A stretch of 64,000 nt of DNA from an uncultured Lachnospiraceae bacterium (lineage in GTDB: Bacteria; Bacillota; Clostridia; Christensenellales; UBA1242), in NCBI GenBank assembly GCA_964521165.1, contig CAZFRA010000002.1, positions 2,320-66,319 on the forward strand, in the 5' to 3' direction. Shown here piece after piece: positions 27,521 to 64,000 of this stretch. The position numbers and the translations under genes are program-made. Position 1 is the stretch's first letter. Every line of letters begins with the position of its first letter. The notes under the pieces are model-generated. The model did not search any database and was not told the origin of the DNA. It saw only the letters and a program-made list of their open reading frames with translations.

Positions 27521-27544
27521 AAAGATAGTGGAATTTTTAAGCCA

Positions 27545-45234: not shown

Positions 45235-45246
45235 TTAACTTAAAAA

Positions 45247-45293
45247 GAAACCTTTAAATTTGATTTATAATTTGACAAAGGTTTCTTTTTTTT
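45247..45293 (+). terminator. Terminator hairpin whose loop contains the next gene's -35 box
   Basis: Stem GAAACCTTT (45247-45255) / AAAGGTTTC (45277-45285), 21-nt loop, T-run 45286-45293. Confidence 0.55.
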
Positions 45294-45301
45294 GTTATCA
45301 T
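45272..45301 (+). promoter_or_regulatory. Promoter abutting the start codon of the LPG-synthase-like gene (leaderless candidate)
   Basis: TTGACA 45272-45277, extended -10 TGtTATCAT 45293-45301, 7 nt, ATG 45309. No SD. Confidence 0.55.
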
Positions 45302-45308
45302 AGCGTAT

Positions 45309-46676: not shown

Positions 46677-46701
46677 CTCGCAAAAAAAACAAACTAAGGA
46701 T

Positions 46702-47247
46702 ATGAAAAAATCGACATATCCTTGGATTTTTAGTGTCGTTGTTTTGACTGTGCTTTTGGTGATAACCTTCTTTTTGGGGTACACAGGCTATTTTTTCTCA
46801 CTGTCCTATTTGAGTTCAGAAACCGATTTGACGCTTGGCGACAGTGTTTTAATCAACATTTCGCCGAATGAAACAAGCGTAGTGTCTTACACTTTTGACG
46901 GCGCATACTTGCCGGGCGAAAGGCTGGAGCAAATTGTGCAAATTAAGGCTTCAGACCTTGAAAGTGACTTGCGCGTACGGGTGAAAGCGGAAGTTTTTTC
47001 GGAAGATGAAACTTTTGCCTTTGATTTTGTCACTACCGAAGATTTTGTAAGAGCGGATGACGGCTATTTTTATCTAAATGGCAGTTTAGCAGCAGGAAAT
47101 AAAACCACTTTTTGTACAAGCGTGATTTTGCCGAGCGAAACCGTTTTTTCGAGCGGGAAAAAATATGTTTTATCAATAATTGTGGAAAATCTAGAAGATA
47201 AATTTGATGTGGATACAATTTGGCAAATAAATAAAGAAAATACTTGA
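46702..47247 (+). CDS. Hypothetical N-terminally anchored extracytoplasmic protein
   Basis: 181 aa. One N-terminal TM (WIFSVVVLTVLLVITFFLGY) followed by a beta-rich domain. I recognise no family. Confidence 0.6.
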   Translation: MKKSTYPWIFSVVVLTVLLVITFFLGYTGYFFSLSYLSSETDLTLGDSVLINISPNETSVVSYTFDGAYLPGERLEQIVQIKASDLESDLRVRVKAEVFSEDETFAFDFVTTEDFVRADDGYFYLNGSLAAGNKTTFCTSVILPSETVFSSGKKYVLSIIVENLEDKFDVDTIWQINKENT

Positions 47248-47300
47248 TTTTGTTGGACATTTTTTGTTTTTTAGGTTAAAATAACTCTTGAGAGGTTATT

Positions 47301-47645
47301 ATGGAAGAAGAAAAGAAGGTTTTACCAACTCCACCAAAAGAATTAAATCGGAAAATGCCACCACCGCCACCAAAGAAGAGCGAAGAAACAAGCGAAATTG
47401 AAGGTAATGTGGTGCAGGAAAATTCTGTTGTCGCAAATGAGCAAGCAGAAGGGTTGCAGGCGACTTCAAAAGGACCAGAAGTTGCAAAAGCGGCAGAAGT
47501 GGAACCAACAACAGAAACGGCACAAGTGGAAAAGCCGAAAAAGAAAAAAGAACTTTTTTGGAATAGAAAACCGTTGCTTTGGTCGGGTATTGTGCTTGGA
47601 ATTGCCTTGGCGGCAGTTGTCATCTTTTGCGTCCTTGCTTTATAG
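47301..47645 (+). CDS. Hypothetical tail-anchored protein with a Pro/Glu-rich disordered N-terminus
   Basis: GAGAGG SD. PPPPPKK tract. C-terminal TM LLWSGIVLGIALAAVVIFCVLAL. The overlapping antisense ORFs look like junk. Confidence 0.55.
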   Translation: MEEEKKVLPTPPKELNRKMPPPPPKKSEETSEIEGNVVQENSVVANEQAEGLQATSKGPEVAKAAEVEPTTETAQVEKPKKKKELFWNRKPLLWSGIVLGIALAAVVIFCVLAL

Positions 47646-47740
47646 TTTAAAGTTAAAGTGAAATAATTTAAAATTACATTTTTTTCTTAAATTCAACAAT
47701 TTTTTTTGTTGGATTTTTTTATTTTGTCAAAAATGACACT

Positions 47741-48187
47741 ATGAAGAAAATTATCGTTTTGCTTTTCATTACCCTATCTCTCACCTTAACCACTTTTGCC
47801 AAATCGGGCAGTAATCCTCTTTGGAGTTTTGAAAAAGTTACTTCGGTTTGTCTGGTGGTCGACAGCGATGCGCTGGATGGTGAGAATGTGGTTGAGTGCG
47901 GCAATAAAGATTTTGTGTATATGTCAAAGGAAGAAGGTGTGAAAGTAAAGTGTAAAATTTATGCGCTTCAATTCTATTTGCAGGATGTGACACTCGGCGA
48001 ACTTCTCGACCTTCTTAAAGCGACGGTTGTTTCATATCAAGAGTTTGAGGGGTTGGAAATATACTACTGTTATACACCTTACGAGCAAGATTGTGTTTTT
48101 TTGGAAAATAAAAAAGTCAACCTTCAAATTGTTTTCAAAAATGGTGAAGTTGTGCTAGGTATGCCACTCATTCTAACAGGATATTGA
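47741..48187 (+). CDS. Small secreted protein, possibly YwmB/DUF1779-like
   Basis: Signal peptide MKKIIVLLFITLSLTLTTFA. The C-terminal ...LGMPLILTGY resembles the GTPxIxxEY ending I recall for the YwmB family. Weak call. Confidence 0.5.
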   Translation: MKKIIVLLFITLSLTLTTFAKSGSNPLWSFEKVTSVCLVVDSDALDGENVVECGNKDFVYMSKEEGVKVKCKIYALQFYLQDVTLGELLDLLKATVVSYQEFEGLEIYYCYTPYEQDCVFLENKKVNLQIVFKNGEVVLGMPLILTGY

Positions 48188-48218
48188 TTTTGAAAAATTA
48201 AAATAAAAATAGAAATTT

Positions 48219-48260
48219 TCGCAAAAAAATCGCAAAAAAATCGCAAAAATCGCAATTTTT
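48219..48260 (+). repeat. Four phased TCGCAA-A(n) direct repeats upstream of the SpoIIQ-like gene
   Basis: TCGCAA at 48219, 48230, 48241 and 48250 (spacing 11, 11, 9 nt), each followed by an A-tract. The last copy is followed by T5. Confidence 0.8.
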
Positions 48261-48309
48261 GTGTTTAAAAACTCTTCAAAACGGCAATAAAAGCGGTATG
48301 GAGGGAAAT

Positions 48310-48861
48310 ATGGAAATAACCAAATCAAACAAAATTAAAAACTTCTTCAAAAGATATGGCGTGGTATTTTTGGCTTGCGTTTTTATTGTTGCTATTGTGT
48401 TGGCAGTGAGTTTAACGGCTGTTACGCAACCAGTTTCGACAACAGAGTTAAATTTTGCAAGCCCGATGCTTAACGCTGAAATTACAAAAGACTATTCCGA
48501 CACCGAACTGCAATATAACGAAGTGTTAAATAGGTGGGAAATACATCTCGGTATCGACTTTGCGAGTGAAGATGTTGCGGTTTATTCTGTTTTGGACGGC
48601 ACCGTGGTCAGTGTGACCAACAATTCGTTGGAAGGTTATGTGGTGGAGATTGAGCACTCTGACGGCTTCACGAGCATATATTCTTCATTAAGCGAAAATG
48701 TGCTTGTGGAAGAAGGTGATACTGTGGAAAGCGGACAACAAATTGGTGAAGCGTCAAGCACTGCAAGTGCTGAGTTTGATGACTCTCAACTTCATTTTGT
48801 TCTTCTTCTAAATGGAGAAGAAGTTGACCCTAACCTATATATTGATTTGCAAAACAAATAA
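48310..48861 (+). CDS. Membrane-anchored M23/LytM-domain protein, SpoIIQ-like
   Basis: GGAGGG SD 4 nt before ATG 48310. N-terminal TM. HLGIDF (HxxxD) is present, but the distal HxH reads QLHFV, so the first His is lost. Lies upstream of spoIIID as spoIIQ does in Bacilli and Clostridia. Confidence 0.6.
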   Translation: MEITKSNKIKNFFKRYGVVFLACVFIVAIVLAVSLTAVTQPVSTTELNFASPMLNAEITKDYSDTELQYNEVLNRWEIHLGIDFASEDVAVYSVLDGTVVSVTNNSLEGYVVEIEHSDGFTSIYSSLSENVLVEEGDTVESGQQIGEASSTASAEFDDSQLHFVLLLNGEEVDPNLYIDLQNK

Positions 48862-48879
48862 CAGGCACGTCCTGTTATT
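48857..48879 (+). terminator. Hairpin overlapping the stop codon (weak terminator, no clear U-tract)
   Basis: AATAACAGG (48857-48865) / CCTGTTATT (48871-48879), 5-nt loop. Confidence 0.35.
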
Positions 48880-49027
48880 ACATATAAAATTTAAAAAAAT
48901 GCAAAAATATGATTAAATTTACTCAGTTTTTATCAATTTTTATAAGATATTGGATTTTTGATTAACCTTGCTTAATTGCTTTTATTTATAAAATTAACCA
49001 CTTTAAGAAAGAATGTTTGAAAATAAC

Positions 49028-49057
49028 TTGCCTTTTTATCTTTTTTTATGTTATCAT
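49028..49057 (+). promoter_or_regulatory. acpP promoter
   Basis: TTGCCT 49028-49033, 17-18-nt spacer, TGTTATCAT 49049-49057. This is the same extended -10 string as at 45293. Confidence 0.5.
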
Positions 49058-49080
49058 ACAAATGTATGGAGGGATAAAAA

Positions 49081-49308
49081 ATGATTGAAAAAATAAAGAA
49101 AGTTTTGGCTGACCAACTTGGAATCGACGCCAGCACAATTAAAAATGATTCAAACATTATCGAAGATTTGGGAGCAGATTCTTTGGATGTTATTGAAATG
49201 TTGATGACATTGGAAGATGAGTATGGTATCACAATTCCAGACGACAAAATCAACACTGTTAGAACAATTTCAGAAGTTGCAGAACTCATTGAAAAATGTA
49301 TGAAATAA
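49081..49308 (+). CDS. acpP: Acyl carrier protein
   Basis: 75 aa. Phosphopantetheine site DLGADSLDVIEM. GGAGGG SD. Confidence 0.9.
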   Translation: MIEKIKKVLADQLGIDASTIKNDSNIIEDLGADSLDVIEMLMTLEDEYGITIPDDKINTVRTISEVAELIEKCMK

Positions 49309-49342
49309 AACATTAGTTGACAATTTTTGTCATAATTCGACA

Positions 49343-49379
49343 AATCCTCACATAAGGTTAGTTATGGAGGATTTTTTTT
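49343..49379 (+). other. Hairpin plus U-tract that includes the spoIIID Shine-Dalgarno (terminator and/or RBS-sequestering structure)
   Basis: AATCCTC (49343-49349) pairs with GAGGATT (49367-49373). 17-nt loop, T-run 49374-49379, ATG at 49380. Confidence 0.5.
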
Positions 49380-49631
49380 ATGAAAACTTACATTGAAAAG
49401 CGGACTTTACTTGTGGCGAACTACATTCTTGACACGCACGAAACAATCAGAAAAACGGCAGAAGTTTTTAATCTTTCCAAAAGCACAGTGCACCACGACC
49501 TTGCTATGCGACTTCAAAAAATTGACAAAGGTTTATTCTTTGAAGTGAAAAAAATTTTAGATTTTAATTTTTCCGAAAAACATATAAGGGGTGGTGAATC
49601 GACCAAAAGAAAATTTTTAAATAAAAAATAA
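49380..49631 (+). CDS. spoIIID: Sporulation transcriptional regulator SpoIIID
   Basis: 83 aa. YI.ERT..VANYILDT..TIRKTAEVFNLSKSTVHHDL...EVKKILDFN.SEKHIRGGESTK is closely parallel to B. subtilis SpoIIID. Confidence 0.9.
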   Translation: MKTYIEKRTLLVANYILDTHETIRKTAEVFNLSKSTVHHDLAMRLQKIDKGLFFEVKKILDFNFSEKHIRGGESTKRKFLNKK

Positions 49632-49670
49632 AAGTAATGAAAATTAAAAAATATAAAAAAATAATAAAAA

Positions 49671-49714
49671 AATGCGAAAATTTTTGAAAAAAATGCAATT
49701 TTTTCGCATTTTTT
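49671..49714 (+). terminator. Terminator after spoIIID (long-loop hairpin)
   Basis: AATGCGAAAA (49671-49680) / TTTTCGCATT (49701-49710), then TTTT. Confidence 0.45.
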
Positions 49715-49822
49715 CATATATTTTTAAATTATTGCGCTTGGAATTTTCACGAATTTTTGATTTTTAATTTTAAAAAATATTTAAAAAATGTTTTTTTGGG
49801 TTTTTTAATATCATTTTTTTAT

Positions 49823-49852
49823 TTGACTTTAGGCGAATAGTTATATTATAAT
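49823..49852 (+). promoter_or_regulatory. Promoter of the giant lipoprotein gene
   Basis: TTGACT 49823-49828, 18 nt, TATAAT 49847-49852. Leaves a roughly 65-nt 5' UTR with an AGGAGG SD at 49915-49920. Confidence 0.6.
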
Positions 49853-49925
49853 TATTTTGTAAATAATTCTACGCACGATTTAATAAATTTATTTGCAAAT
49901 GCAAATATTAGTTAAGGAGGCATTG

Positions 49926-52900
49926 ATGAAAAAAGTCGCATTAGGTTTTCTTACGATGATAATGCTGTTTGGTGGGGTGATTCTCTCGGCTTGTAACGAG
50001 AAGAATATTTCACTTTCATTGTCTGCCAGCGAAGTAACTCTTGCCACAAACAACAGCCAACAAGATTCTTCAACGGACATCGTTGTCACACTTAGCGGTT
50101 CAAGTGCGGGTATCACAGCAATTCCAGTTTCGCAAGACGATATTGTGGAAGTTTCCACACCTGTCGCAACCGGCAATGGAACTTACACCTTCACGATAAC
50201 TTCTTTAAGAAGTGGAACTGCTCAAATCAGAGTTTCAGCGATTGAAGATTCCAGTGTTTACAAAGATGTGACCGTCAATGTCAAAACTTACATAGAAAGT
50301 GTTACGAGTCTTGATCTAACCGACTCGGACGGCAGAAGTGAACTTTATGTTATCAAAGGTGGCGAAGGAAAAGATTTGACGCCTTCTTCATATTTCAACC
50401 TAGAACCTTTGGATGCCAATGTTATGGATATCACTTGGTCGTTTGAAAGTGGTAGTGTGGAATACTATAACAACTCGCAACTCGTGGCAGAAATTGTAGA
50501 TAATCAAACGCTTTATGTTTACGAAAACTTTAACCTTGATGAAATTACTCTTGTGGCATACTCAGCGCAAATGCCGACTGTTAGCGAAGAAGTGACTTTT
50601 GCAGTTATTTCAAGTTCCAGTCTTTCTTCAATATCTATTGGTAGTGGTGGGAATATTGAACTTATAAGAAATGATGCGAACAATTCGTCGGTTACTGGCA
50701 CGATTATTGTTAACACATTTGATGAAGATATGACGGTGGAACTTGAAGTTTACCGCACCCTCACCAGTGGTGCATATTATCAAGTTTCAAATTATGCCGA
50801 CTACTTAAAATTTGAGCCAACATATTCCTATGACGAAGATAGGCAACAACTGACGATAACCTTCACACTTGATGCACAAGACGAAGATAGCAAAAATGTG
50901 AGTGGAAATATTTTTGTGCAATTCAAGTTTGAGTATAGTGAATACACCTACGACTTTTACGCATTCGACACAACAGATGATTATGTCAGCATAAACACAT
51001 ATTACATTCCAATCTCTTTGACCGTTCGTGACAGCAGTTACAGCTCGATAAATAACACTATCGACATTTATTCGAATTATGTTTCTGGCTGGGGCTATGA
51101 ATTGCTTGTTAATATTTATCCGGACAATGTTACACTCAACGACAATGCCTTCCAAATCTCGATTGAAGGTGCTGGACTTTATACCGATTCGAACTATTAC
51201 ATCAAGGTTTATAACGAAAACTATCAACTTGTCGAATTTTCGCAATATGAAGGTTCTTCCACCTGGCTTTCTGAAAAAATAACAAGTGGGTCGAAAATAT
51301 ATATCCAAGCAGGTGACGGCAATTTCTCGACTGTGGAAGACTTTGTGATAACCTTTGTTGCTTGCGGAAATGGCACAGCGAAACAGTCAATCACAGCAGA
51401 TCTCTATCGTGTTTCCGACGATGACGAATTGCTTTTGTATGAATACTCAATTGATGCCGCAACTGGCGCGCACAATGTTGGTAGTCAATTTGACTATACA
51501 AGCACCTATTATATCTCTTCGGGCGTTGAATCAATGACAAGAATCTTTTATTTGCGTTTGTATGGCTACACATCCACTCAGGGTTTAACTTTGAACTACA
51601 CGCAAAATGATAATATCTCAATCTCATATACAACGAGTGGCAGTTATGCCGAAGGAGATGATGTTGATGAATATTACGTCGATCTCGTCGTTACCGTTGA
51701 AATCAAAAACGAAGGTTATGAAGGTGAGTTTAGTTTCTGGTTTACGCACAAAACGGGTGCTGAAAGTGGAATAATTTCCACATATGCGTTTGCACCACTC
51801 ACCGATGTCGTTTTGGTGAATGGTAGTGCCGGTTCAACAAGTATATATTACGATGCCACCGACACACAAAACTATGTGCAAACTATGGTGGACGGTGAAA
51901 CAGTTATTTTTGCAAGTGCGGATTATGTGAGCACAGGTACTCTTTCTTCCATTTTGGTTTCAGCAGGTTCCAATTTTAGTCTTGGCCTTGACTATGGCGG
52001 AGCAACGCTTAACACCACAAGTACAACTGCTGGATATTATTTTGCTTATCTAGATTTGGAAACTTTCACAACTGACAACGGAAACCTTTTGGCAGACTTG
52101 AGCGATGACGAAATTTCTGAAATTTTCTTTAATCTGAATAACGGCGGCATTTTTAACAACGAAAATTATATTTATAACTTTAAAACTGAAAACAACACAT
52201 ATTTTACATATACCAATGGCTCTTTGCGTGTGGCAAGTGATAACGGCGAATTTGTTATCTATGTTGCAGTTTTCTTCAATGGTTACAACGAATCACACGA
52301 AGAAATCACGCTTGTGAGAGTGTTTAGACTGGAAAGTTTTTATCCAGTAAGTTCGTTGAGAAGTGATGTAACAAATGCCAATCTTTATGCCAGCGAAAGT
52401 TTAAGCACAACCGAATCCGACCTTTCTTATGTTGTTGTGACTGTGTCTTTGCGTCACGATAATTATTCTCCAACTTATTTGGACCTTTCAAATTTCTCGG
52501 TTTCTCTTTTGAATGACTTTTCAGACGATTGGTATTCAATGAGTGAAACAGTCATTACGGATGGCTATGTCAGCATCTCAAACATTCGGCTGGTAACATC
52601 TTCTTCCGCCACCACTTTGGAATTTAGAATAACAGCAATTTCCACACAATTTAATTCCAGTGTTTTGGATATCATCACTTTGCGCTATCAGTTAAACTAT
52701 GAAAACACAAGTGTTTCTTATTTAACAACCACAATTGATATCAACATTAGTCAAGCAGACCGAGTTGAAAAAGTGGAGTGGATAAACGAAACGGAAGATG
52801 GTGAAGTGTATTTGAACCTATATTCCAATGACACTTCGGACCAACTCTTTACAATTTCCACATCAGTTTCACCAAGCAATGCGGAGAATAAAACTTTAAC

Positions 52901-55900
52901 ATATTATTATGACGCAGGCGACCAAAATGCCGCAATTTTGAGTATTCAAACAGAATCGATAAGTCAATCTTTCTTCTTAACAATCGGCAACGCAAATGTT
53001 GGCGGTTATGGTTATTTATACATCTTGCCTGCTGATATGGTAAAAAGTTACGGCGGACAAGAGTGTTTTATTGTCTATTCCTATGATTCGAGTGGCGATA
53101 TAAGCACAAGTGCAAGTTACTTTCCTTTGAGTTCAATTGGAACATATTACCAACAACTCATCGATGGCACGGGCAGTTTTGCCAACTATTTCTTGAACAA
53201 CAATGGTGAAAAGGTATACTATAGTGACATAATTCTAAGAATAAGGGTGACTGTTGCTGATGGTTTAAGTGAAGAAACTGCTATAAGAATTTATTCTCAG
53301 TCAGAATTGGCAAATGTTGAAAGTAATTTGTATTATCGCATAATGAATGACATTGAACTTGAAGGCTGGGAATCAATTGAAAGCTTCTCTGGAATGATTT
53401 TCGGCGATAATGAAGATATTACTTTGACTTTCTCATCCGGTTCAGAAACTTTGATAAACAATCTTTCCGGCACAATCAAAAATTTGACAATGGTTGGAAG
53501 TGTAACCGGTGGCGGTTTTGTGGCAAATTATATCACTGAAACTGGAGAAGTGGATAATGTTGTGGTGGATGTAAACTATGTGGACGGCGCATATGCACCG
53601 AGTGAAGTTTCGGGCGGATATACAGTTAGTGGTTCCGTTTATGCGGGCGGAATTGCCGGTGTAAATAACGGAACAATCTCTAATGTTAAAATCTATGGTA
53701 TAAACATCACTTTGTCGGGAAGTAACACATACGCAGGAGGCGTTGTTGGTGCGAACTATAATATAATTTCTGATGCGGGTGTGGAATTCTATAAGTTCTT
53801 AGATAGCACAAACAGCGTAACAAATAACAAAATTTCGGCACAATATGTTGGCGGACTTGTTGGTTATGCGGGTTATGTTGCTTCGGGTAGCACGATGTTA
53901 AGATATTCAAAAATATCCAATTCTTATGCTTATGCCTTTAATTTGGAAAATAGTTCTTCCGTAAATTATACAGATGTTCTTGAAGGAACATATGTTGGTG
54001 CGTTCGCAGGCTTGTTGAATATCGGCAGCACCAGCAATATACTTTACTTTTCATTATCAAATTCTTTTGCTTATTTGGGCAATCTTGGCAATAATAATAA
54101 CTTTGGATTTGGTTCTGTCAATGGAAGTGGAAGAGTGGAGATATCAAATTCATATATCACATACTATTCTTCGGATGATACTGAATTTTTAATGTCTTAT
54201 ATTTTGTCATATGATGCAGAAGTTAATGGCATCAACAGTGGAGTGACAACCACCGACCTTGAAAATGCTGATTATACTAACTTTGATTCATCTTGGGTGA
54301 CAACCAGCATTGATACCAAAATCAATTTTGGTTTTGCATATCTTAAAGATGTTCAACAAACAAGTAGTGTTTCACTTTCTGATAAAAAAATCCAAACAGT
54401 TTCTGGCAAATCAATAGGCTCCGATTCGGGCGATACAGGAATCATATTCTTATATAGCGTCAGCGGTACAATTTCCAGCAATGCAGCTCAAAGTGAATTA
54501 ACAAGACGCAACACCATATCTTTAGCAGAACTTTTTGGAATTGAAGAAGATGAAGCGGAAAGTTTGTTGGTTAGTGTGGATAAAAGTTCTTATTTAAACT
54601 TCACAACAAACAGCCTAGTTGCGAAAAACTCCAATATTAATTTAACACTTAATGGTGAAGGTGTACCTTTAATTTTAACCCTATATAGCAGAGTCGATTT
54701 CAGTCAAACAAAAACATTTCAAATCGTTGTGGTGAATTATGTTCCAGAAATTATCGTAACAGCCGGCACAAACGAGTTAACGGATGGACAAATTTTGAAT
54801 ATCCAAACAGGTTCGAAAAATGGACAACAAGTTCAAGTGACTTTGGATAACACAATTTATCTCAACGGCGTGGCATATACACTTGTTCAAAATTCTGACT
54901 ACACATATGAAGTGATCGTATCGGATACAGAAGGATATCTTTCCTATTCTGCAAATAACAACATTATAACTTTTGTTGGAAATAAAGCATCAAATAGCGA
55001 TAATGTTGAAGTATCAATCAGTTTAGGAATTTCTCAACTTGAAGAAAACTTCCAATCTTTCAATGAAATTCTCAAAGAAAATCGTCAAAGAAATTTCTCT
55101 ATCGCAACATACGACGGCGCCACAAATTTGAAACTTGATGCTACCAGTTTCTCAATCACACCTTCCGAAACGGTAAGTTTCACGGCAGAACTTGAAACAA
55201 CGCGTCCAGACGATGAAATTTTACTCACTTTCGTATATAACAATGTTGAATATTCAATCGACGAAAACAATCAAGTTGTCATCAGCAGCAATGTTGCTTT
55301 GGATGTTTCCATAACAGAAAACAACAAAGTCTATAATATCGCAATCAGTGTGGCAAGAGAATATCGCCACAAAGTTGACAGTACTTATGAAATTGAAATA
55401 ATTGTCAATGCTTTAAGTCAAATCAACTCAACAACTTTTGCTAAGTCTATAAGTTTAACTTTGCAAAAACAAGGAATAAACAAAGTGGATGTGACGGCAT
55501 ACACAATTAGCACACGAACAGTCAATAATTCAAGGTGGTATTACACGCCGTCTTCCACAATAACTTCCACTCTCACACCTGGCTCGGATAGCATTTTTGT
55601 TGTGGATATCACACCAATGTATTCTCACTTCACTCACTTTGATGTGACTTACACTGCCGTATCTTCTGGCAGTGTTGGAACAGTCAGCATCAATCGTCTT
55701 TCATACAACTCGACCTTTGGATATTACGCTGATTCTTCCACAACTTCCAGTATGATTTCCGGCATCAGCGTCACACCAACCGATGACGACCTTCAAAATG
55801 GGCTTTACTATTTCAGAATCTATGTTTCTTCTGCTTTCACATCAAACAGCAATGTGACTTTAACCTTCACATTCTATGATGGCAACGAAACTGTGGCAAC

Positions 55901-58900
55901 TTTCACGACAAATTTTGTCATCGACTATCTCGTATCCGCTGAGGTGCTTGTCAATGGTGAATATACCACAATTGTGGCAAAAGGCGACTCTGTTCAAGTA
56001 AGCGTGGCTTTGGAACTCGACCAAACCTTAGTCAACAATACAATCAGAATTGAAACTTCTGACTCAACAATCACAATTTCAAATGTTACCGAAGAAGAAA
56101 CTGACTCGGCTCGAATTTACACGGCAACAGTTAACACAAGCGTGCGTTCCAGCACCGGCACTTTTTATGTTTACGCATCAGTTTCGAGATATGTCAACGG
56201 AATTTTGGACTATGTCGACAGTTACGCCACCGTCTATATCGTTGATTTCACGATAAATCCAGACGAAACCACGGTTGTCGGCACAACGCAAACGGCAGAC
56301 TATAACGGCAACACATACGATTCTTTCATTTCTTACATCAACGCAGAACAAGTTTTGGCGTTTAACTATTCGATTGAACCGGAAACATATAACTACGATT
56401 CTAACAACACCGAAGACTATTTGGCAGTGCAAGAACTTTTGCAAAAGAGAACGGCATTTGTTCGTGAAGGTAGTTACAGTGACAGAGATTCCGGTTATTA
56501 CATCAACTATTCTTACAATGCAACTGGAAATCAAAAATTACCTATCGAACAAAGACTTTACTATGTCAACGACGACGGCTCGGCATCGGCGATTTACAAC
56601 TCTCAAACTGGCGAATTCTTGCCAAACTCGGTGGTAAGTTTTGCGAAAGGCAGTAACGACACTTTGACAGTCACAGGTCTTCGCACCGGTTCCATTTTGC
56701 TTCGAATGATAACAACTGTGATTATCGGTAACACCACTTTTGAATATTCATATGACTTTGTCATCACGATAAGTGTTTGGACGGACGAAGAAGTGCCAAT
56801 TCCAATCTACACAGCCGAAGAATTTTTGACATACCTTCAAGGAAATCCAGACTCAAATGGCAATACATCAGCGGGTGACTACATTTTGATGAACGACATT
56901 AAACTCACAAACTACACACCTGTCGACACCACTTATTTCAACAGTTTTGACGGAAATGGCTATCAAATTTATATCGACAGTTTTGACACTTCCGCAACCA
57001 ATTTGGAAGTGGCATTGTTTAGCGAAGTAACCGAAAACTCCACAATCAAAAATGTTCGTGTGAACATATATAACGGTGGGCAATTAACGCTCAACTTAAA
57101 TCAAAACTATTCCAGCATAAATATTGCCGGATTTGCGATAACAAACAGCGGAATTATTTATAACTGCGAAGTTGTGGCATATTATGACAGTTCACTCTCC
57201 TCTTCGCAATTCTCAACCGACGCGGGACTTGTTGTTAACTTCACAAGAGGTTCGGGGATGGATTCTGTTATTTTAACGTCGCAAGATATCGATGTTAGCA
57301 ACGTGATAATTTCCGGTTTTGTTATCACCAACAACAATATTATCACTAACAGCCGTGTCGGCGGTGAAAGCATCGGCACAATTGTTTCTACCGATTCCAC
57401 AAATTATTACAGCGAAATTACGCTTTCAACCTTCACAATTTCAGGTCAAGGCACTGTTGTTGGCTTTGTAAGCAGCAACCTTGGAACAATCTCAGCATCT
57501 TTTGTCAATAATGTTCAAATCGACAATATGATGAATTCAACTTCGTCAATAACCGCTGGCTTTGTGGTTTACAACAACGGCGAAGTTCACACATCCTATG
57601 TCCAAGGCGTGTATGATTCCAGCAGTAACGATGACGGCGACGAATTCTACTTCACTGGCTCAACCATTTCCACGACCGGCGTGGTTGCAGGTTTTGTATA
57701 TTCCAACTCTGGACTTGTAAAAAATTCCTATGTCAACATTGCGTTTGAAGTCGATATCACAAAGAGTTATCTCTCTGCTGGCTTTGTGTACACCAACCAA
57801 TCCAGCGGTGAAATAACCTTGTGTTACGCGGCGGCAAAAATGGCGCAAACCGACATCAACGAAATGAGTTTTGTCGGCACAACCGAAAGTGGTGATGATG
57901 ACCTTAACTATAATGAAGACGGCATCACCTATTCGTATTATTACTCTCCAGACAGAATTGACACTTCGCCGCAGTCTAACTACGACACCGGCGCATACGC
58001 AGTCACAGATGTTGGACAAGAAGATACCTTCTATCGCTTTACATTCTCTTCAATTGAAGGAGCTCTTGACGGCATTTGGACGATGACGGACAGAGGAATA
58101 ACTTTGGTGAGCGCAAACCACATCGCGTTCTCAAACAGATACCTTGTTTATAACTCGGTTGATGAAGATGACTATTATTATCTATATAGTATACTAACGG
58201 ATATGACGACATATCGCCAAATTGACTTGTCATATGGTTCAATCAACAACCCAATCATCATCAGAACGGCGACAGAATTTGCTAAGGCAACAGGCAAGGC
58301 GCAAGATGTGGAAATTTCGTCATATAAGCAATATTACACCGACACCGAAGTGTTTGGATATTATCGACTTGTCAACGATTTGGATTTCTCGGAAATCGAC
58401 CAAAACACCTCTGGCGAAAATGATATCGTTTTAACAACAACGACCAAAACTTTCTCGGGTAATTTGGACGCAAACTCTTTCACAATTTCGAACATAAGTT
58501 TGGGTTCGTCCGAAACTTTGGAAAATTATGGCTTATTTGCCAAACTTGACGGCGCAGTGATAATGAACTTAGGTTTGGAAGTTGACTCTGTGCACGATTC
58601 AAATGCACGAATTGTCGGCACTCTGGCTGGAACAGTTATCGATACTCAACTTATCGGAATTGCACTTTCTCCAATCAGTTCTAGAAGTGAAGAAGAAGCG
58701 ATTGAAGTCGTTTCCATTGCTGGTGCAAACATTGTTGGTGGACTTGTCGGAATTGTCCTTGGCGATTCCAGACTTGCTGATATCACCGTGACAGATATTG
58801 ATGTTGATTCATCATATTATTATGGCACAGGCAAAACAATTGAAATAAATTCAACCTACACCGGTGAATACCTTCGTCGACTTGCTTATAACAATTCAAC

Positions 58901-61900
58901 CTTAATGGATGCTGTGAGCAGATTGTCATATGCAGGCAGTGTGGCAGGTTATGTGGACACATACCAAAATCTCGGCGACGGATATGTGGAATATTCTTCC
59001 AGCGTTTCCGTGTCGAGTTACAGCGTTGCTTCCATAAGAGCGCTTGACTCTGTGGATATCTATGCAGAAGTTGCCGGCGGCTTATTCGGATATTTAGGCA
59101 GAAGTGTTTTGGCGTATGATTTGAGTCTGGAACTCGACGCTGATTCAAACTTAACCACACCTTCTTATATCACATCCAAAAACCTATATGCTGGCGGAAT
59201 TGTCGGTGAGAGTTATGCCGGACTTTTCGCGGTTTATGCAGAATATGAAGAAACTTTGCAAAGCACGATTGAAACAGGAATGTTAAACGGCGGAAGCACA
59301 GAAAGGGGACAAGTGAGCATATTCTCATATACGGATAGCGACACGAGTCATCCGGGTAGATACAACAATCCACTTTATATCGGCGGACTTGTTGGCTATG
59401 CCGGTGCGGGCTACATTTCAGTGGCATACAACAAATTAAATGTCGTTTCCAACAACCGTTCCAGTGAATCGCGATATTACACTTTGGCAGTTGGCGGAAT
59501 TGTGGGTTACATCAATTCTGAATATAGTTATGACTCCGACTTTGTGGAAAACAATGTGACAATTTCATATTATTTAAATGAAGTATATTTCAGCGGCGTG
59601 ATTTACTCTCAAACAAGTGCGAATGCAGGCGGAATTATCGGTGAAATTGATGTCGACAGCGATGTTGCACTTTCCAAAGTTAACAGCATACCATATTACG
59701 ATGAATCACAAGATTCGTCCAATCTATACTCCTTGATTGGTGGCTTCTCGGGCGGAGTGGAAGGCGAAATGTCGCGCAATCTCTATCTTCTCAGTTTGAG
59801 AAACAGTTATTATAACGCCACAAGCACGATAAATTCAGCTTCAACAGGCAACACGCTTTCTGGAATTGCAGTTGTTAACTCTTTCTTGCAATCCAATTCA
59901 GAAAGAACACAAACATACATCAATGGTGTTAACGATTCACAATTGTCATCAACGGCAAATTATGTGCCAATCCGCGAGATATCTTCACCAAGTAGTATGA
60001 CTTCAATCGCAGAAGCACATTCTTCTATGGCGACCTTTTTCTTGCAAAACGAATGGGATGAAACTCATTGGGTTCATAACGACAGCGATTTGTATCCAGA
60101 AATTGTTCTTGTTCCAAAAATGGAAGCATATTATCTTGATGCAGATTATGACTTAACGGAATTAAATAAATATATCGAAGACTATTCAACAGGCACCATT
60201 ATTGTGCGTGGACGCGTGGATTCAAACGTAAGCGGAGAATATTCCGACATCGACCTTAGGGGAGTTACTTTAAGCGGTTTCTCGGGCACAATCATCTCTT
60301 ATTCAAACTATATGAATTCCAATTTGGAAGGAATTATCACAGTTATTCCAAGTGATTATACAGCCAATGGCTACTATATTGGCGGACAAGTTGGTGATGA
60401 AGTTGGACTTATAATCAACGAAAGTCAAAGTCTTTTTGCAAACACTTCAGATGGCTTCACAATGGATGGTATAAAAATTTACCTTGCAGACTCTAGTAGC
60501 GAAAATTCTGATGGTGCTGATAAACTTGAATATAGCAGTAGCAACAGTGGCTCAAGCATTATTAGTGGTGAACTCTCAAATGCTGATATAATTGATGTGG
60601 ATATTTATATCAACAATAGCATCACCTTCAACCTTAACCAATCGGGCACGGATACATATGGGCTTTTTGTTAGCACAGCAAATTCCACAAACTTTGAAAA
60701 TATCACTTTCCATTTCCGTTATGCGTATGACGTTGATGGGGCGGTAATAAACCCACAAATCAACCTAAATCTCTCTACAGGCGATAGTGATACGGATATT
60801 TCGCAATATAAGCGTTTTGGACTTCTTGCCGGCTCGGTAACGCAAAACTCAGTATACCGTTCGTCAACCATATCCAATATTGTGCTGACGGTGGAAAAAA
60901 GAGTGTTGGTAGGTGGTTCCGTAAGCAGAACAACCGACAGTGTGACGCTTGAAGTAAATATCGTCAATGAAAACCAAAGCGCTGATAATAAAAACTCTCT
61001 CTACTTTGGTTTAATTGCCGGCGATGTCATAATTTCGGCTAGCACAATCAACAATATGCCACTCACTTTTGGAATCACAAACTTAACAGACTCCACCTTT
61101 GATGGTATTAATTTGGTTTTGACAGGAAGTGAAGATGGCGGACAAGAAGGTGATTCGCTTGACAACATATATCTCGGCGGATACTTTGGAAGCGCAAACT
61201 TCACATCCATCAACGGTGTTGGCGGGGCACAACCGTCTTCACTCATCAAGAATTTTATTATCTTGCAAGAAATTTCAATCACTGGCAATGTCAATATTGG
61301 TCTCGGTTTTGGACAACTCACTGGCTCAGGCACTTTCGACTTTACGATTGACACATCGCTTGCAAGCGGTGGTAGAATTGAAATGTCAGGTGCACTTTAT
61401 CAAAAATACACTATCGATACCGACACCGGCAAAAGAGAGTCTTCACTAACAACCGGCGGAACGGGGGAAACAGTCAATATTGGCGGATTTATCGGCTTGG
61501 CACAATATAATCTTCAAATGGTAAGCGGTTTGGCTGTCGATTTCAGCGTGAAGAGCGTAACTGCTATTGACGCTGAGTCAATGAGCGATGATTTGTATTC
61601 GTTAGTTAATTTTGATTATGACAGCGATGGTGATTATTTCAAATCATCAAACGGATCTGTTACATCAGAAACATATATGGTGGAAGGTGAAGTAAATATC
61701 GGCGCGTTTGTTGGTCAAATGACAGGCGGACACATCAATTTTAGCAGTCTCTCAGTTTCTGGCGACATACAAATTAAAAATACAACTTCATCTTCTTCAT
61801 CTTCTTCATCTTCCACAAATCTTGGCGTGGTTGGAAAAGTTGATAACGCTTCGATAAGTGTTACCGGAACGGCATCAAAACTCAGCACCATAAACTTCTT

Positions 61901-64000
61901 TGTTTTGAGTGGTGGCACGGCAAATGTTGGTGGTTTTGTTGGATACTTATACTCAACAACAAACAGTTTCAATTTAACAAATTTTATGTATTCCGGCACA
62001 GTAATTTCATTCGCGAACACTCTCAATTTTGGTGGAATTGCGGGTTCAGTATCACTTCTTAATTCCACGGGCAATATGATTGAAAATGTGGTTTATGGTG
62101 GCACAGTCCGAGTCTTCACACGAAATGTTGGTAACCAAAGTTCTAGTTCTAGTATATATTATAACACTGAATATGTCACAGTTGGTGGTGTGATTGGTGT
62201 GTTAGCGGGACCTGCTGTAAGCAACGGGATTATGTCGATAAATAGTGCATACACCTATGGCGATATTTATGTAAGTTATGGCTCTTCGACTGAATATTTG
62301 GAAAAATTCTATTTTGGCGGCGTAGTTGGCGATTTAGATCCTGATACATCAAGCGATTCAGAAACTCTTGTTAGGGTTGAAGATTCATATGTTCTTATGA
62401 CACCATTTAACGATAGGTTGACTGAAGAGTTGAGTGGTTTAGGCGGGGATTACACTGCAAATTCCATTGTTGGACATAATGCCGAATATGCGACATTCAC
62501 TGATAACTATTATTCATCAGGTGTTACCTTGACATATCAATATGAAGGTGAGGGCAACAACATTGATGTTTCCTATGGTGCTTCACTTGACAACTATTAT
62601 GGATATTCCACCGCTGAAGTTGATAACAACAGCAGCCTAAATGGGACGACTGGTGGTGATGCTGCCATCAATGAAATTATCAAAGGTGCAGCACAAGCGT
62701 ATGATTCTTCTTTATCCAGTGAAAGCGAAGGCACAAAACTTAATCCAAGCCAGATAGACTCTTTGACTGATATAAGAAATATTAGTAGTGGCTCAACTGG
62801 AAATATTAAATGGTATTACTTCGATAATATTACTAACGACGAATATGATTACACAATAACAGATACTTATTATTTAAATAGTGAAAATTTATCTAATGTT
62901 GTGATTGTTGGAAATGCTCACACTGTGAACATTGTTATTGAAGACACAGTTGAACCTTTGTTCACATTAATTGGTGAAGCGAATAATTCCTATTCCGTTA
63001 TCTCGGGACTTGTTTTAAATATCACATTTGATTATGATATTAATCGCGGCCAAAATAATGTAGATTTAGCATCTTCCGGACTTGTTGGCACTGTTGGAAA
63101 TAGTAGCGTAACATCTTCCAACATAATTTACGGCGTTGGCGTTACTGGCACGGTAGAATTTGGTGGCACAGGTCTAGTTGACTTTGCCGGCATTTCGCAA
63201 CAAATGCATAACGGATTAGTTTCCAATTCCTATGTGGACTTGGATATCTTCTATCACGCCGGAATAGATACCAGCAGTAGTTCGACAATCAGCGCGATTG
63301 TTTCAACACGCGGAACCGTGGATATTTTAAGCACATTTGCGCAAGGAAGCGTGTTGTGTTATATCCCAGCAGATATATACACCTTTAATTCGCGGGTTGG
63401 CGAAAACAGCGGACGAACAAGAGTGGTTGAGTGCTACACTGTAATGCAAGTATCTTCTGAAAATTACGGCAGCGGATTGCTAAGTTCATACAACACTTTC
63501 AGCACATCCGATGCAGGCTATGTTCAAAATTCTTACTATAGTGATTATAGTGGATTGGCAAGCGACGAACAAGGAAACCAGGAAATTGTTTCCGACATTT
63601 CGCTTGAGTATGGCGAAAGTTCGATAAGTAAAAACAGTTTGATTGGTAATAACGAGAGTATGTATACATATTGGTTCTACTCGCAATATCGAAACTATGG
63701 CTATGCAACCACCGGATTTGTTTATTTAAGAAATACTTCGGCTTATTCGCGTTCTTTGGAAAACAAAAATGATAGCAACAATGATGAAACATATGCTTAC
63801 AACACCTACACATACACTAAACTCACCGAAACCGAGTTGGCAGGAATTGGAACAGATTATACATATACCGTAACAGAAAATGAGATGGGAGCCACATATG
63901 ATCTCTTCCTTGCCGTTCCAAATGAAGGCAAATTCTCGCAATTGTCAGGTTTGGGAAGTGGTAAATTCTTCTTGTTGAATGATATGAATTTAAGTAATTT
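49926..64000 (+). CDS. Giant surface lipoprotein (more than 4,691 aa, 3'-truncated by the window) with Ig-like (Big_2-like) segments and multiple GLUG-type parallel-beta-helix cassettes
   Basis: AGGAGG SD 5 nt before ATG 49926. Signal peptide and lipobox MKKVALGFLTMIMLFGGVILSAC. I read every codon of frame 0 to base 64000 and found no stop. All listed plus-strand ORFs in this span are in frame 1. Repeated motifs include YAGGIAGVNNG, YVGGLVGYAG, VAGGLFGY, YAGGIVGE, AVGGIVGY, NAGGIIGE. Big_2-like VSPSNAENKTLTYYY. Confidence 0.9.
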   Translation, partial: MKKVALGFLTMIMLFGGVILSACNEKNISLSLSASEVTLATNNSQQDSSTDIVVTLSGSSAGITAIPVSQDDIVEVSTPVATGNGTYTFTITSLRSGTAQIRVSAIEDSSVYKDVTVNVKTYIESVTSLDLTDSDGRSELYVIKGGEGKDLTPSSYFNLEPLDANVMDITWSFESGSVEYYNNSQLVAEIVDNQTLYVYENFNLDEITLVAYSAQMPTVSEEVTFAVISSSSLSSISIGSGGNIELIRNDANNSSVTGTIIVNTFDEDMTVELEVYRTLTSGAYYQVSNYADYLKFEPTYSYDEDRQQLTITFTLDAQDEDSKNVSGNIFVQFKFEYSEYTYDFYAFDTTDDYVSINTYYIPISLTVRDSSYSSINNTIDIYSNYVSGWGYELLVNIYPDNVTLNDNAFQISIEGAGLYTDSNYYIKVYNENYQLVEFSQYEGSSTWLSEKITSGSKIYIQAGDGNFSTVEDFVITFVACGNGTAKQSITADLYRVSDDDELLLYEYSIDAATGAHNVGSQFDYTSTYYISSGVESMTRIFYLRLYGYTSTQGLTLNYTQNDNISISYTTSGSYAEGDDVDEYYVDLVVTVEIKNEGYEGEFSFWFTHKTGAESGIISTYAFAPLTDVVLVNGSAGSTSIYYDATDTQNYVQTMVDGETVIFASADYVSTGTLSSILVSAGSNFSLGLDYGGATLNTTSTTAGYYFAYLDLETFTTDNGNLLADLSDDEISEIFFNLNNGGIFNNENYIYNFKTENNTYFTYTNGSLRVASDNGEFVIYVAVFFNGYNESHEEITLVRVFRLESFYPVSSLRSDVTNANLYASESLSTTESDLSYVVVTVSLRHDNYSPTYLDLSNFSVSLLNDFSDDWYSMSETVITDGYVSISNIRLVTSSSATTLEFRITAISTQFNSSVLDIITLRYQLNYENTSVSYLTTTIDINISQADRVEKVEWINETEDGEVYLNLYSNDTSDQLFTISTSVSPSNAENKTLTYYYDAGDQNAAILSIQTESISQSFFLTIGNANVGGYGYLYILPADMVKSYGGQECFIVYSYDSSGDISTSASYFPLSSIGTYYQQLIDGTGSFANYFLNNNGEKVYYSDIILRIRVTVADGLSEETAIRIYSQSELANVESNLYYRIMNDIELEGWESIESFSGMIFGDNEDITLTFSSGSETLINNLSGTIKNLTMVGSVTGGGFVANYITETGEVDNVVVDVNYVDGAYAPSEVSGGYTVSGSVYAGGIAGVNNGTISNVKIYGINITLSGSNTYAGGVVGANYNIISDAGVEFYKFLDSTNSVTNNKISAQYVGGLVGYAGYVASGSTMLRYSKISNSYAYAFNLENSSSVNYTDVLEGTYVGAFAGLLNIGSTSNILYFSLSNSFAYLGNLGNNNNFGFGSVNGSGRVEISNSYITYYSSDDTEFLMSYILSYDAEVNGINSGVTTTDLENADYTNFDSSWVTTSIDTKINFGFAYLKDVQQTSSVSLSDKKIQTVSGKSIGSDSGDTGIIFLYSVSGTISSNAAQSELTRRNTISLAELFGIEEDEAESLLVSVDKSSYLNFTTNSLVAKNSNINLTLNGEGVPLILTLYSRVDFSQTKTFQIVVVNYVPEIIVTAGTNELTDGQILNIQTGSKNGQQVQVTLDNTIYLNGVAYTLVQNSDYTYEVIVSDTEGYLSYSANNNIITFVGNKASNSDNVEVSISLGISQLEENFQSFNEILKENRQRNFSIATYDGATNLKLDATSFSITPSETVSFTAELETTRPDDEILLTFVYNNVEYSIDENNQVVISSNVALDVSITENNKVYNIAISVAREYRHKVDSTYEIEIIVNALSQINSTTFAKSISLTLQKQGINKVDVTAYTISTRTVNNSRWYYTPSSTITSTLTPGSDSIFVVDITPMYSHFTHFDVTYTAVSSGSVGTVSINRLSYNSTFGYYADSSTTSSMISGISVTPTDDDLQNGLYYFRIYVSSAFTSNSNVTLTFTFYDGNETVATFTTNFVIDYLVSAEVLVNGEYTTIVAKGDSVQVSVALELDQTLVNNTIRIETSDSTITISNVTEEETDSARIYTATVNTSVRSSTGTFYVYASVSRYVNGILDYVDSYATVYIVDFTINPDETTVVGTTQTADYNGNTYDSFISYINAEQVLAFNYSIEPETYNYDSNNTEDYLAVQELLQKRTAFVREGSYSDRDSGYYINYSYNATGNQKLPIEQRLYYVNDDGSASAIYNSQTGEFLPNSVVSFAKGSNDTLTVTGLRTGSILLRMITTVIIGNTTFEYSYDFVITISVWTDEEVPIPIYTAEEFLTYLQGNPDSNGNTSAGDYILMNDIKLTNYTPVDTTYFNSFDGNGYQIYIDSFDTSATNLEVALFSEVTENSTIKNVRVNIYNGGQLTLNLNQNYSSINIAGFAITNSGIIYNCEVVAYYDSSLSSSQFSTDAGLVVNFTRGSGMDSVILTSQDIDVSNVIISGFVITNNNIITNSRVGGESIGTIVSTDSTNYYSEITLSTFTISGQGTVVGFVSSNLGTISASFVNNVQIDNMMNSTSSITAGFVVYNNGEVHTSYVQGVYDSSSNDDGDEFYFTGSTISTTGVVAGFVYSNSGLVKNSYVNIAFEVDITKSYLSAGFVYTNQSSGEITLCYAAAKMAQTDINEMSFVGTTESGDDDLNYNEDGITYSYYYSPDRIDTSPQSNYDTGAYAVTDVGQEDTFYRFTFSSIEGALDGIWTMTDRGITLVSANHIAFSNRYLVYNSVDEDDYYYLYSILTDMTTYRQIDLSYGSINNPIIIRTATEFAKATGKAQDVEISSYKQYYTDTEVFGYYRLVNDLDFSEIDQNTSGENDIVLTTTTKTFSGNLDANSFTISNISLGSSETLENYGLFAKLDGAVIMNLGLEVDSVHDSNARIVGTLAGTVIDTQLIGIALSPISSRSEEEAIEVVSIAGANIVGGLVGIVLGDSRLADITVTDIDVDSSYYYGTGKTIEINSTYTGEYLRRLAYNNSTLMDAVSRLSYAGSVAGYVDTYQNLGDGYVEYSSSVSVSSYSVASIRALDSVDIYAEVAGGLFGYLGRSVLAYDLSLELDADSNLTTPSYITSKNLYAGGIVGESYAGLFAVYAEYEETLQSTIETGMLNGGSTERGQVSIFSYTDSDTSHPGRYNNPLYIGGLVGYAGAGYISVAYNKLNVVSNNRSSESRYYTLAVGGIVGYINSEYSYDSDFVENNVTISYYLNEVYFSGVIYSQTSANAGGIIGEIDVDSDVALSKVNSIPYYDESQDSSNLYSLIGGFSGGVEGEMSRNLYLLSLRNSYYNATSTINSASTGNTLSGIAVVNSFLQSNSERTQTYINGVNDSQLSSTANYVPIREISSPSSMTSIAEAHSSMATFFLQNEWDETHWVHNDSDLYPEIVLVPKMEAYYLDADYDLTELNKYIEDYSTGTIIVRGRVDSNVSGEYSDIDLRGVTLSGFSGTIISYSNYMNSNLEGIITVIPSDYTANGYYIGGQVGDEVGLIINESQSLFANTSDGFTMDGIKIYLADSSSENSDGADKLEYSSSNSGSSIISGELSNADIIDVDIYINNSITFNLNQSGTDTYGLFVSTANSTNFENITFHFRYAYDVDGAVINPQINLNLSTGDSDTDISQYKRFGLLAGSVTQNSVYRSSTISNIVLTVEKRVLVGGSVSRTTDSVTLEVNIVNENQSADNKNSLYFGLIAGDVIISASTINNMPLTFGITNLTDSTFDGINLVLTGSEDGGQEGDSLDNIYLGGYFGSANFTSINGVGGAQPSSLIKNFIILQEISITGNVNIGLGFGQLTGSGTFDFTIDTSLASGGRIEMSGALYQKYTIDTDTGKRESSLTTGGTGETVNIGGFIGLAQYNLQMVSGLAVDFSVKSVTAIDAESMSDDLYSLVNFDYDSDGDYFKSSNGSVTSETYMVEGEVNIGAFVGQMTGGHINFSSLSVSGDIQIKNTTSSSSSSSSSTNLGVVGKVDNASISVTGTASKLSTINFFVLSGGTANVGGFVGYLYSTTNSFNLTNFMYSGTVISFANTLNFGGIAGSVSLLNSTGNMIENVVYGGTVRVFTRNVGNQSSSSSIYYNTEYVTVGGVIGVLAGPAVSNGIMSINSAYTYGDIYVSYGSSTEYLEKFYFGGVVGDLDPDTSSDSETLVRVEDSYVLMTPFNDRLTEELSGLGGDYTANSIVGHNAEYATFTDNYYSSGVTLTYQYEGEGNNIDVSYGASLDNYYGYSTAEVDNNSSLNGTTGGDAAINEIIKGAAQAYDSSLSSESEGTKLNPSQIDSLTDIRNISSGSTGNIKWYYFDNITNDEYDYTITDTYYLNSENLSNVVIVGNAHTVNIVIEDTVEPLFTLIGEANNSYSVISGLVLNITFDYDINRGQNNVDLASSGLVGTVGNSSVTSSNIIYGVGVTGTVEFGGTGLVDFAGISQQMHNGLVSNSYVDLDIFYHAGIDTSSSSTISAIVSTRGTVDILSTFAQGSVLCYIPADIYTFNSRVGENSGRTRVVECYTVMQVSSENYGSGLLSSYNTFSTSDAGYVQNSYYSDYSGLASDEQGNQEIVSDISLEYGESSISKNSLIGNNESMYTYWFYSQYRNYGYATTGFVYLRNTSAYSRSLENKNDSNNDETYAYNTYTYTKLTETELAGIGTDYTYTVTENEMGATYDLFLAVPNEGKFSQLSGLGSGKFFLLNDMNLSN

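Follow-up and report, generated by a model that had tools for sequence, protein, structure and literature searches.

A gene of probably 20 to 22 kb in an uncultured Clostridia bacterium encodes a predicted lipid-anchored, fibre-like surface protein of Ig-like and beta-helix modules

The stretch of DNA analysed, hereafter the window, comprises 64,000 nucleotides of contig CAZFRA010000002.1 (positions 2,320 to 66,319 of the forward strand). It is ordinary chromosome, with secA, prfA, prmC, cysS, recD2, mfd, genes for a P-type ATPase and rubrerythrin and similar genes, one tRNA only and no rRNA. The last 14 kb of the window are the first two-thirds of one real gene (the giant gene), whose product is a fibre-like surface protein with a predicted N-terminal lipid anchor. 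The features of the giant gene and of its start region are the following.

49823 to 49852, plus strand: candidate sigma-70-like promoter (TTGACT-18 nt-TATAAT), matching at 11 of 12 positions and the best in 49300-50000
49914 to 49920, plus strand: Shine-Dalgarno sequence AAGGAGG, 5 nt before the ATG at 49926, read directly from the sequence
49926 to 49994, plus strand: predicted lipoprotein signal peptide, residues 1-23 (MKK, hydrophobic core, lipobox L-S-A-C, Cys23)
49995 to 53300, plus strand: N-terminal stalk, residues 24-1125, about ten Ig-like beta-sandwich domains predicted by AlphaFold2 and Foldseek
53301 to 54530, plus strand: predicted beta-helix module M1, residues 1126-1535, GGxxG (GLUG-like) rungs at residues 1241, 1271 and 1309
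54531 to 56300, plus strand: spacer S1, residues 1536-2125, no GGxxG rungs
56301 to 58025, plus strand: predicted beta-helix module M2, residues 2126-2700, rungs of the form (A/V)GF(V/A)xxNxG
58233 to 60200, plus strand: predicted beta-helix module M3, residues 2770-3425, six GGxxG rungs and a C-terminal cap WxxxxWxH...P
60201 to 62780, plus strand: predicted beta-helix module M4, residues 3426-4285, long and less conserved, GGxxG rungs at residues 3853-4131
62781 to 63860, plus strand: predicted beta-helix module M5, residues 4286-4645, linked to M1 by hhalign (93.8%)
63861 to 64000, plus strand: start of a sixth module, cut by the window end (...FLLNDMNLSN), aligning to residues ~4830-4858 of orthologue P0001

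Plus-strand frame 0 was open from the ATG at 49926 to base 64000 (4,691 codons, zero stops upon translation), whereas each of the five other frames held 200-390 stops per 4,691 codons across the same interval, which excludes openness by chance. At the lowest of these stop rates (about 4.3% per codon), the calculated chance of a frame remaining open for this length is approximately e^-200. The closest in-frame stop upstream of the ATG was a TAA at 49884, and the frame at the window end read ...GKFFLLNDMNLSN. The initial annotation had claimed the open frame, the Shine-Dalgarno sequence 5 nt upstream of the start, the promoter at 49823-49852 and the reading frame at the window end, and all four were present as described. 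Five sigma-70-like sites were found near the gene start against 3.9 expected in shuffled sequence, so that the promoter candidate belongs to a class of sites in no excess over chance.

Codon-position bias was strong in the giant gene (G in 33% of first and 11% of third positions), which is the usual sign of real coding sequence. Its G+C content was 0.37-0.42, slightly above that of the surroundings. Logan contigs from runs SRR7039258 and SRR7039262 were 100% identical to window positions 41296-51266 and 42733-51009, respectively; both covered the gene start, with 100% identity over the first 447 and 361 codons, and both ended inside the giant gene.

An exhaustive HMMER search with residues 1101-2300 as the query against 1.84 billion cluster representatives returned 62 matches (47 below E 1e-30), most of them proteins of 5,946-7,682 amino acids (aa) matched at the same relative position. 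The matches included about 40 collinear orthologues of 5,946-7,682 aa, and the family was collinear over its whole length. The complete protein encoded in the window (residues 1-4689) aligned in one piece with residues 1-4858 of the 7,328 of P0001 (52% identity). It likewise aligned with residues 1-4882 of the 7,375 of P0002 (49% identity) and with residues 1-4789 of the 6,899 of P0003 (45% identity). The closest orthologue extended approximately 2,470 residues past the aligned part. From these alignments, 2,100-2,500 residues are therefore missing from the window, which agrees with the claim of the initial annotation that a single giant gene runs off its end; the gene would measure about 20-22 kb, of which 6-7.5 kb probably lie beyond the window end. 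The full protein is probably about 6,800-7,200 aa long, with a mass of approximately 0.75 MDa and a pI near 4.

The family is lineage-restricted, with about 40 clusters at 50% identity. Its members all came from metagenomes or metagenome-assembled genomes, and those looked up carried no name in their source databases. Two fragment matches were NCBI records labelled "Clostridia bacterium"; this label is given to the family from the names of the two fragments, backed by the sporulation genes nearby. The host is predicted to be an anaerobic, spore-forming Clostridia bacterium with about 36% G+C, because a SpoIIT-like gene, an M23 peptidase gene, an acyl carrier protein (ACP) gene and spoIIID lie directly upstream of the giant gene.

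Other searches gave little or nothing. A word-index search found no homologues with the first 1,200 residues as the query, and with module M3 returned only three short fragments and no full-length member, because the S/T/N/G-rich composition fills the 8,000-candidate list with chance word matches. A result of "no homologues" from a fast word-index search is thus untrustworthy for S/T/N/G-rich proteins, given that the exhaustive HMMER search recovered the whole family. No significant match was found in Pfam (whole protein and tiles), NCBIfam, PHROGs, or the PDB by sequence and profile searches. An exact 46-mer from the window end had no match in GTDB genomes, an exact 41-mer had no match in JGI metagenomes, and a search with the last 596 residues retrieved no relatives from either collection. 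A SecA 100% identical to that of the window was present on a 135-kb NCBI contig.

The N-terminus (MKKVALGFLTMIMLFGGVILSAC) carried MKK, then VALGFLTMIMLFGGVI, then the lipobox L-S-A-C with Cys at residue 23, as expected of a signal peptidase II substrate (lipobox pattern [LVI][ASTVI][GAS]C, checked visually and with a regular expression). Nearly all of the approximately 40 full-length orthologues had a lipobox (L/F-S/T/G/A-A/S/G-C) at the same place, and those without it were mis-called starts. The lipoprotein signal proposed in the initial annotation is upheld. Only the signal peptide and one GGxxG beta-helix rung (around residue 2928) passed the hydrophobicity threshold in the 4,691 residues, and the signal peptide was the only hydrophobic segment found consistently across the family. 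Neither lgt nor lspA was among the window genes scanned. A sortase LPXTG-type motif with a hydrophobic tail, the other anchor to be looked for, was absent from the C-termini of full-length orthologues, and a sortase-anchored surface protein is rejected on this account.

Serine (13.3%), threonine (9.7%), glycine (8.3%), asparagine (8.3%) and tyrosine (7.6%) were abundant in the protein, with lysine plus arginine at only 3.9%. The mature part inside the window has a calculated mass of 507 kDa and a predicted pI of 4.05. No internal sequence repeats were detected in the window protein by self-BLAST. The AlphaFold2 model of residues 24-1130, built with a 17-sequence family alignment, was almost all beta (mean pLDDT 85). 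Foldseek matched this stalk in the PDB to NUP210, titin I65-I70, cadherin ectodomains and the S-layer proteins SbsB, SbsC and Sap (E 1e-23 to 1e-10). Spacer S1 was unrelated to the beta-helix modules and to the N-terminal array (hhalign probabilities <3%), was conserved and collinear in the orthologues, and is presumed to be a further beta-sandwich stalk.

A motif GG(L/I/V)(V/I)G recurred in clusters along the giant protein. Module M3 was its best conserved part, and the residues invariant in M3 were chiefly glycines and hydrophobic rung positions. The AlphaFold2 model of residues 2769-3440 (pLDDT 83, pTM 0.88) had as its top PDB matches in Foldseek the IgA1 proteases 7uvl, 6xja and 7uvk and BACOVA_03286 (3n6z), with probabilities of 0.98-1.0 and E of about 1e-3. 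Tailspikes, polysaccharide lyases and serine-rich repeat protein (SRRP) adhesins were the next neighbours, and the top BFVD match was a siphovirus "putative IgA1 protease" (E 5.6e-7). M3 is modelled as a right-handed beta-helix of the GLUG kind and is assigned to nothing finer, because the TM-scores of these matches were low. On Pfam GLUG, M3 scored 14.5 bits, the best in the window, and M1 scored 11.2 bits, both under the 20.5-bit cut-off. Past the part that aligns to the window end, where the sixth module continues in the orthologues, a further GLUG-bearing module scored 18.6-20.1 bits in the orthologue on L003, and a remote family fragment carries PF07581 in its precomputed annotation. The three structural leads of the initial annotation each found a counterpart: GLUG in the sub-threshold Pfam matches, a pectate-lyase-like beta-helix in the right-handed beta-helix returned for residues 2769-3440, and Ig-like domains in the model of residues 24-1130.

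Mean family identity was 0.43-0.60 in M2 and 0.1-0.4 in M4. Comparison of family sub-alignments by hhalign linked M3 with M4 (96.5%, E 9e-10), M1 with M2 (96.4%), M1 with M5 (93.8%), M1 with M3 (87.3%) and M2 with M3 (66.5%). Hidden Markov models built from M3 did not detect the other modules, which were linked by profile-profile comparison only. On these comparisons, M1 to M5 are taken to be divergent paralogous beta-helix modules, five in the window.

The C-terminal third was the least conserved part family-wide. Orthologue C-termini had a glycine-rich region followed by a short conserved terminal motif. Nine strain variants of one orthologue were compared (the P0005 cluster, with an overall identity of 93-99.7%). 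Per-site diversity was approximately 0.01 along most of the chain and 0.14-0.36 over the final 600 or so residues. The tip alleles were mosaic, the first half of P0070 following P0005 and its second half P0069, and the extreme C-terminal motif was conserved between alleles and not swapped. A mosaic tip is to be expected if recombination acts on the part in contact with a variable partner.

A second, smaller hot spot of variation lay at alignment columns 5001-5100 (L006 and L007; P0005, P0067-P0075). The closest orthologues, P0001 and P0002, had a glycine-rich hydrophobic stretch, IPPIFGIPVGQIAAVALVLGGIATVAGMLSTANTAMIWG, approximately 200 residues before the C-terminus (residues ~7100-7170 of P0063, encoded at L003 10001-32020, and ~7149 of P0002); elsewhere in the family, a similar segment occurred once, in P0037.

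The giant protein is probably, though by no means assuredly, a fibrillar surface protein held at its N-terminus by a lipid anchor and binding a variable ligand with its distal tip; an adhesin function is the role that this layout suggests. It would be exported by Sec, lipid-modified at Cys23 and retained in the outer leaflet of the cytoplasmic membrane. The Ig-like stalk, of an estimated 35-40 nm (at about 4 nm per Ig-like domain), would carry the chain through the cell wall, and the stiff beta-helix modules would extend the fibre to well over 100 nm (at an estimated 0.48 nm per rung). The glycine-rich mosaic tip at the far C-terminus would then contact the variable ligand, which may be host or food glycans or other cells. 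By analogy, this would follow the logic of a fibrillar adhesin with the topology reversed, the anchor being N-terminal and the working tip C-terminal. Of the two ends of this layout, the lipobox anchor is present in the window protein, and the hypervariable far end is observed in one orthologous species, its counterpart in the window protein lying beyond the window.

Several points weigh against an adhesin of this kind. The C-terminal third of the window protein is known from orthologues alone, and the species in which the tip was seen to vary is another than that of the window, its protein being only 40% identical. Pfam gave no match to a recognised adhesive domain, whether for the window protein or for the C-terminal third of the orthologue scanned. 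The approximately ten Ig-like beta-sandwiches of the stalk matched no Pfam stalk family and, because they are not sequence repeats, are unlike the stalk domains of most fibrillar adhesins. The lipidation of Cys23 is a prediction, the AlphaFold2 models, built with family alignments, cover two segments (residues 24-1130 and 2769-3440), and the Foldseek TM-scores of the beta-helix were low (0.19-0.24 for the top matches of M3, approximately 0.2-0.37 overall). Mean identity in the central residues 2250-3200 (0.45-0.65) is unusually high for an adhesin, and could point to an enzymatic or structural role.

A structural role would make the protein a scaffold or coat of the envelope, serving as a stand-in for an S-layer or as a wall-spanning ruler and maybe linked to sporulation, which is unlikely but deserves some weight. 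A scaffold would suit the occurrence of the protein as one collinear orthologue, whose conservation spans more than 6,000 residues and whose repeats have not expanded, and likewise the adjoining spoIIID, SpoIIQ-like M23 peptidase and SpoIIT-like genes and the resemblance of the stalk fold to SbsB, SbsC and Sap. A recombining hypervariable tip is not expected of a structural coat, however, and the synteny with sporulation genes was lost in the distant member on L004. The promoter candidate is presumably of the housekeeping kind, unlike the consensus sequences of sporulation sigma factors. Pfam scans found no SLH or CWB2 wall-binding domains. An S-layer protein of the Firmicutes type is rejected for this reason, only the stalk fold being similar. 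The initial annotation had proposed a surface adhesin or S-layer-like fibre; the fibre-like character of a surface protein stands, and the S-layer likeness is unsupported, as SLH and CWB2 domains are absent and the anchor is a lipobox.

The conserved centre might also belong to a surface-tethered array of enzymes, in which the beta-helix modules would act as proteases or, like phage tailspikes, as lyases or hydrolases that depolymerise glycans. The protein would then digest polymers and not simply bind them. Catalytic domains are often as strongly conserved as the central modules, and after the IgA1-protease helices the structural neighbours were tailspike depolymerases, alginate, chondroitin and pectate lyases, GH110, GH136 and GH55. 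These enzyme matches were weak, however (E 0.02-1, probability ≤0.3), no enzyme family was matched in Pfam or NCBIfam, and the invariant residues of M3 were mostly those that build the rungs, which together make an enzyme array rather improbable. In published structures, the beta-helix of IgA1 protease to which M3 was matched is not the catalytic domain of that enzyme. HExxH was absent from all 4,691 residues, and neither Pfam, with its M26 family, nor NCBIfam gave a match to a peptidase; an IgA1 metalloprotease (M26, ZmpA type) is rejected for these reasons.

A bolder extension of the fibrillar reading holds that the protein is a previously unrecognised surface organelle in a clade of gut spore-forming Clostridia, a lipid-anchored polypeptide of about 0.75 MDa forming a fibre of perhaps 150-200 nm whose recombining tip acts beyond adhesion. 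The glycine-rich tip, which bears a glycine-rich hydrophobic hairpin in the closest relatives, would be a new functional domain; it might insert into the membranes of other cells, or act as a decoy or receptor in an arms race with phages or host IgA. This is speculative and rather doubtful.

Very unlikely is a contact-dependent effector (a CdiA-like or polymorphic toxin), that is, a filament presenting a variable toxic or membrane-inserting domain at its C-terminus. The conserved body with a variable, mosaic C-terminus and the hydrophobic stretch of P0001 and P0002 fit such an effector. In L003, L006 and L007, however, the gene is followed by RadC and then housekeeping genes, with no immunity-like gene and no orphan cassette, and the searches turned up no TPS, haemagglutinin-repeat, Rhs or toxin domains. 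The alleles moreover share their extreme C-terminal motif, and most of the family is without the hydrophobic stretch. A CdiA-like toxin is rejected, since its defining domains and the downstream immunity gene are absent and the variable C-terminus is the only shared feature.

Finally, the chance that the open frame is an artefact, whether a chimeric or collapsed assembly or a decayed pseudogene open by chance, is negligible: short-read assemblies do break inside the giant gene and the stop codon is not within the window, but the approximately 40 independent orthologues of 5.9-7.7 thousand aa keep the same part order over their whole length, there are no internal repeats able to collapse, the stop counts exclude chance openness, and the two independent contigs match over the gene start, which together effectively refute it and rule out the chimera or collapse against which the initial annotation had cautioned.

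Immediately upstream of the giant gene, a sporulation cluster at 47741-49631 (plus strand) encodes a 148-aa SpoIIT-like protein, the M23 peptidase, ACP and SpoIIID. The SpoIIT-like assignment comes from a weak PF08680 match in the L006 orthologue, and the M23 peptidase may be the counterpart of SpoIIQ. The order pth-mfd-...-M23 peptidase-ACP-SpoIIID-giant gene was kept on L003 and L006, from two related species. One further feature lies between this cluster and the promoter candidate.

49667 to 49714, plus strand: A/U-rich hairpin with a perfect 14-bp stem (AAAAAAUGCGAAAA ... UUUUCGCAUUUUUU; AAAAAATGCGAAAA / TTTTCGCATTTTTT) and a U run

The minimum free energy of the hairpin was -18.3 kcal/mol with a z-score of only -1.86, and a terminator scanner made no call. 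It is possible that the hairpin terminates spoIIID, in which case the giant gene would be transcribed on its own.

Elsewhere in the window, a 657-aa protein without a Pfam match is encoded at 43261-45234 (plus strand), between mfd and an LPG_synthase_TM gene; its place was kept in L003 (636 aa) and L006 (657 aa). A 1,128-aa open reading frame (ORF) at 3638-7024 (minus strand) has no Pfam family; a pair of hydrophobic segments lies at its centre (around ...LWVGIGFALAILSVFMPFLLPLSYISLGVAI...), and its C-terminal half is long and charged and looks like a coiled coil. Directly upstream of prfA, a 558-aa ORF at 13572-15248 (minus strand) joins a DUF1385 domain (residues 48-264) to a methyltransferase of the PrmC type (PrmC_N and MTS, residues 304-472) in an apparent gene fusion. 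At 26001-28000, the G+C content dips to 0.28 around a DUF2207 membrane-protein gene (26330-27520), compared with approximately 0.36 elsewhere.

Among known systems, proteins with a GLUG beta-helix (PF07581), namely the IgA1 metalloproteases of streptococci and Gemella (6xja, 7uvl, 7uvk), in which this helix is non-catalytic, and BACOVA_03286 of Bacteroides ovatus (3n6z), share the recurring GG(L/I/V)(V/I)G rungs and are the best structural matches of M3, with no segment of the window reaching the gathering cut-off of PF07581. These proteins have one such module, compared with five to seven per chain in the giant protein, which is anchored by a lipobox and lacks both the M26 peptidase domain and HExxH.

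Fibrillar adhesins are defined by stalk domains and a binding part far from the anchor, and their survey makes no mention of lipoprotein anchors (PMC8286594). Those of Gram-positive bacteria, for example of the SRRP, Cna and SasG/Aap types, resemble the giant protein in being very long, single-chain and secreted, with an Ig-like stalk and a variable end that is distal, and the beta-helix binding region of the L. reuteri SRRP was among the structural neighbours of M3. They differ from it in their C-terminal LPXTG, in place of its N-terminal lipobox; the giant protein is several times their usual size, and has neither sequence repeats in its stalk nor a catalogued adhesive domain. Ebh of Staphylococcus aureus and SprB of Flavobacterium are likewise giant surface proteins.

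Giant proteins of more than 10,000 aa with RCC1, Listeria-Bacteroides, dockerin or LRR repeats have been described from Clostridia (bioRxiv 10.1101/2023.11.21.568195). These gut Clostridia giants share with the present family a length of thousands of residues, a predicted surface location, a beta-rich modular build and an origin in uncultured Clostridia, but the present family has none of their domains and is not repetitive. In the chlamydial polymorphic membrane proteins, GGA(I/L/V) and FxxN mark the coils of a beta-helix (PMC11166332). They resemble the predicted structure of the giant protein in bearing short Gly-Gly-hydrophobic motifs on successive coils of a long parallel beta-helix. Unlike it, they are autotransporters with a C-terminal beta-barrel in an outer membrane. 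The organism with the giant gene presumably lacks an outer membrane, as it is predicted to be a spore-forming Clostridia bacterium.

Giant surface fibres with a modular build of Ig-like and beta-helix parts are an already known kind of protein. The present family has a predicted N-terminal lipid anchor, no sequence repeats, a recombining glycine-rich tip and no coverage in the domain and structure libraries searched. The family was not found in the literature searched, including a survey of giant bacterial genes. It represents an annotation gap: a conserved family of approximately 7,000 aa has no entry in Pfam, NCBIfam, PHROGs or the PDB, and its copies, where looked up, were unnamed. It may be used as a clade marker, and as a test case for the assembly of long genes from short reads.

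For the organism, an anchor at the N-terminus and a variable tip at the far C-terminus would reverse the usual layout of a Gram-positive adhesin. The recombining tip may report interactions with the host or with phages at the level of strains. The giant gene takes up a noticeable share of a genome that is probably small, and its product therefore likely dominates the cell surface of these uncultured gut Clostridia.

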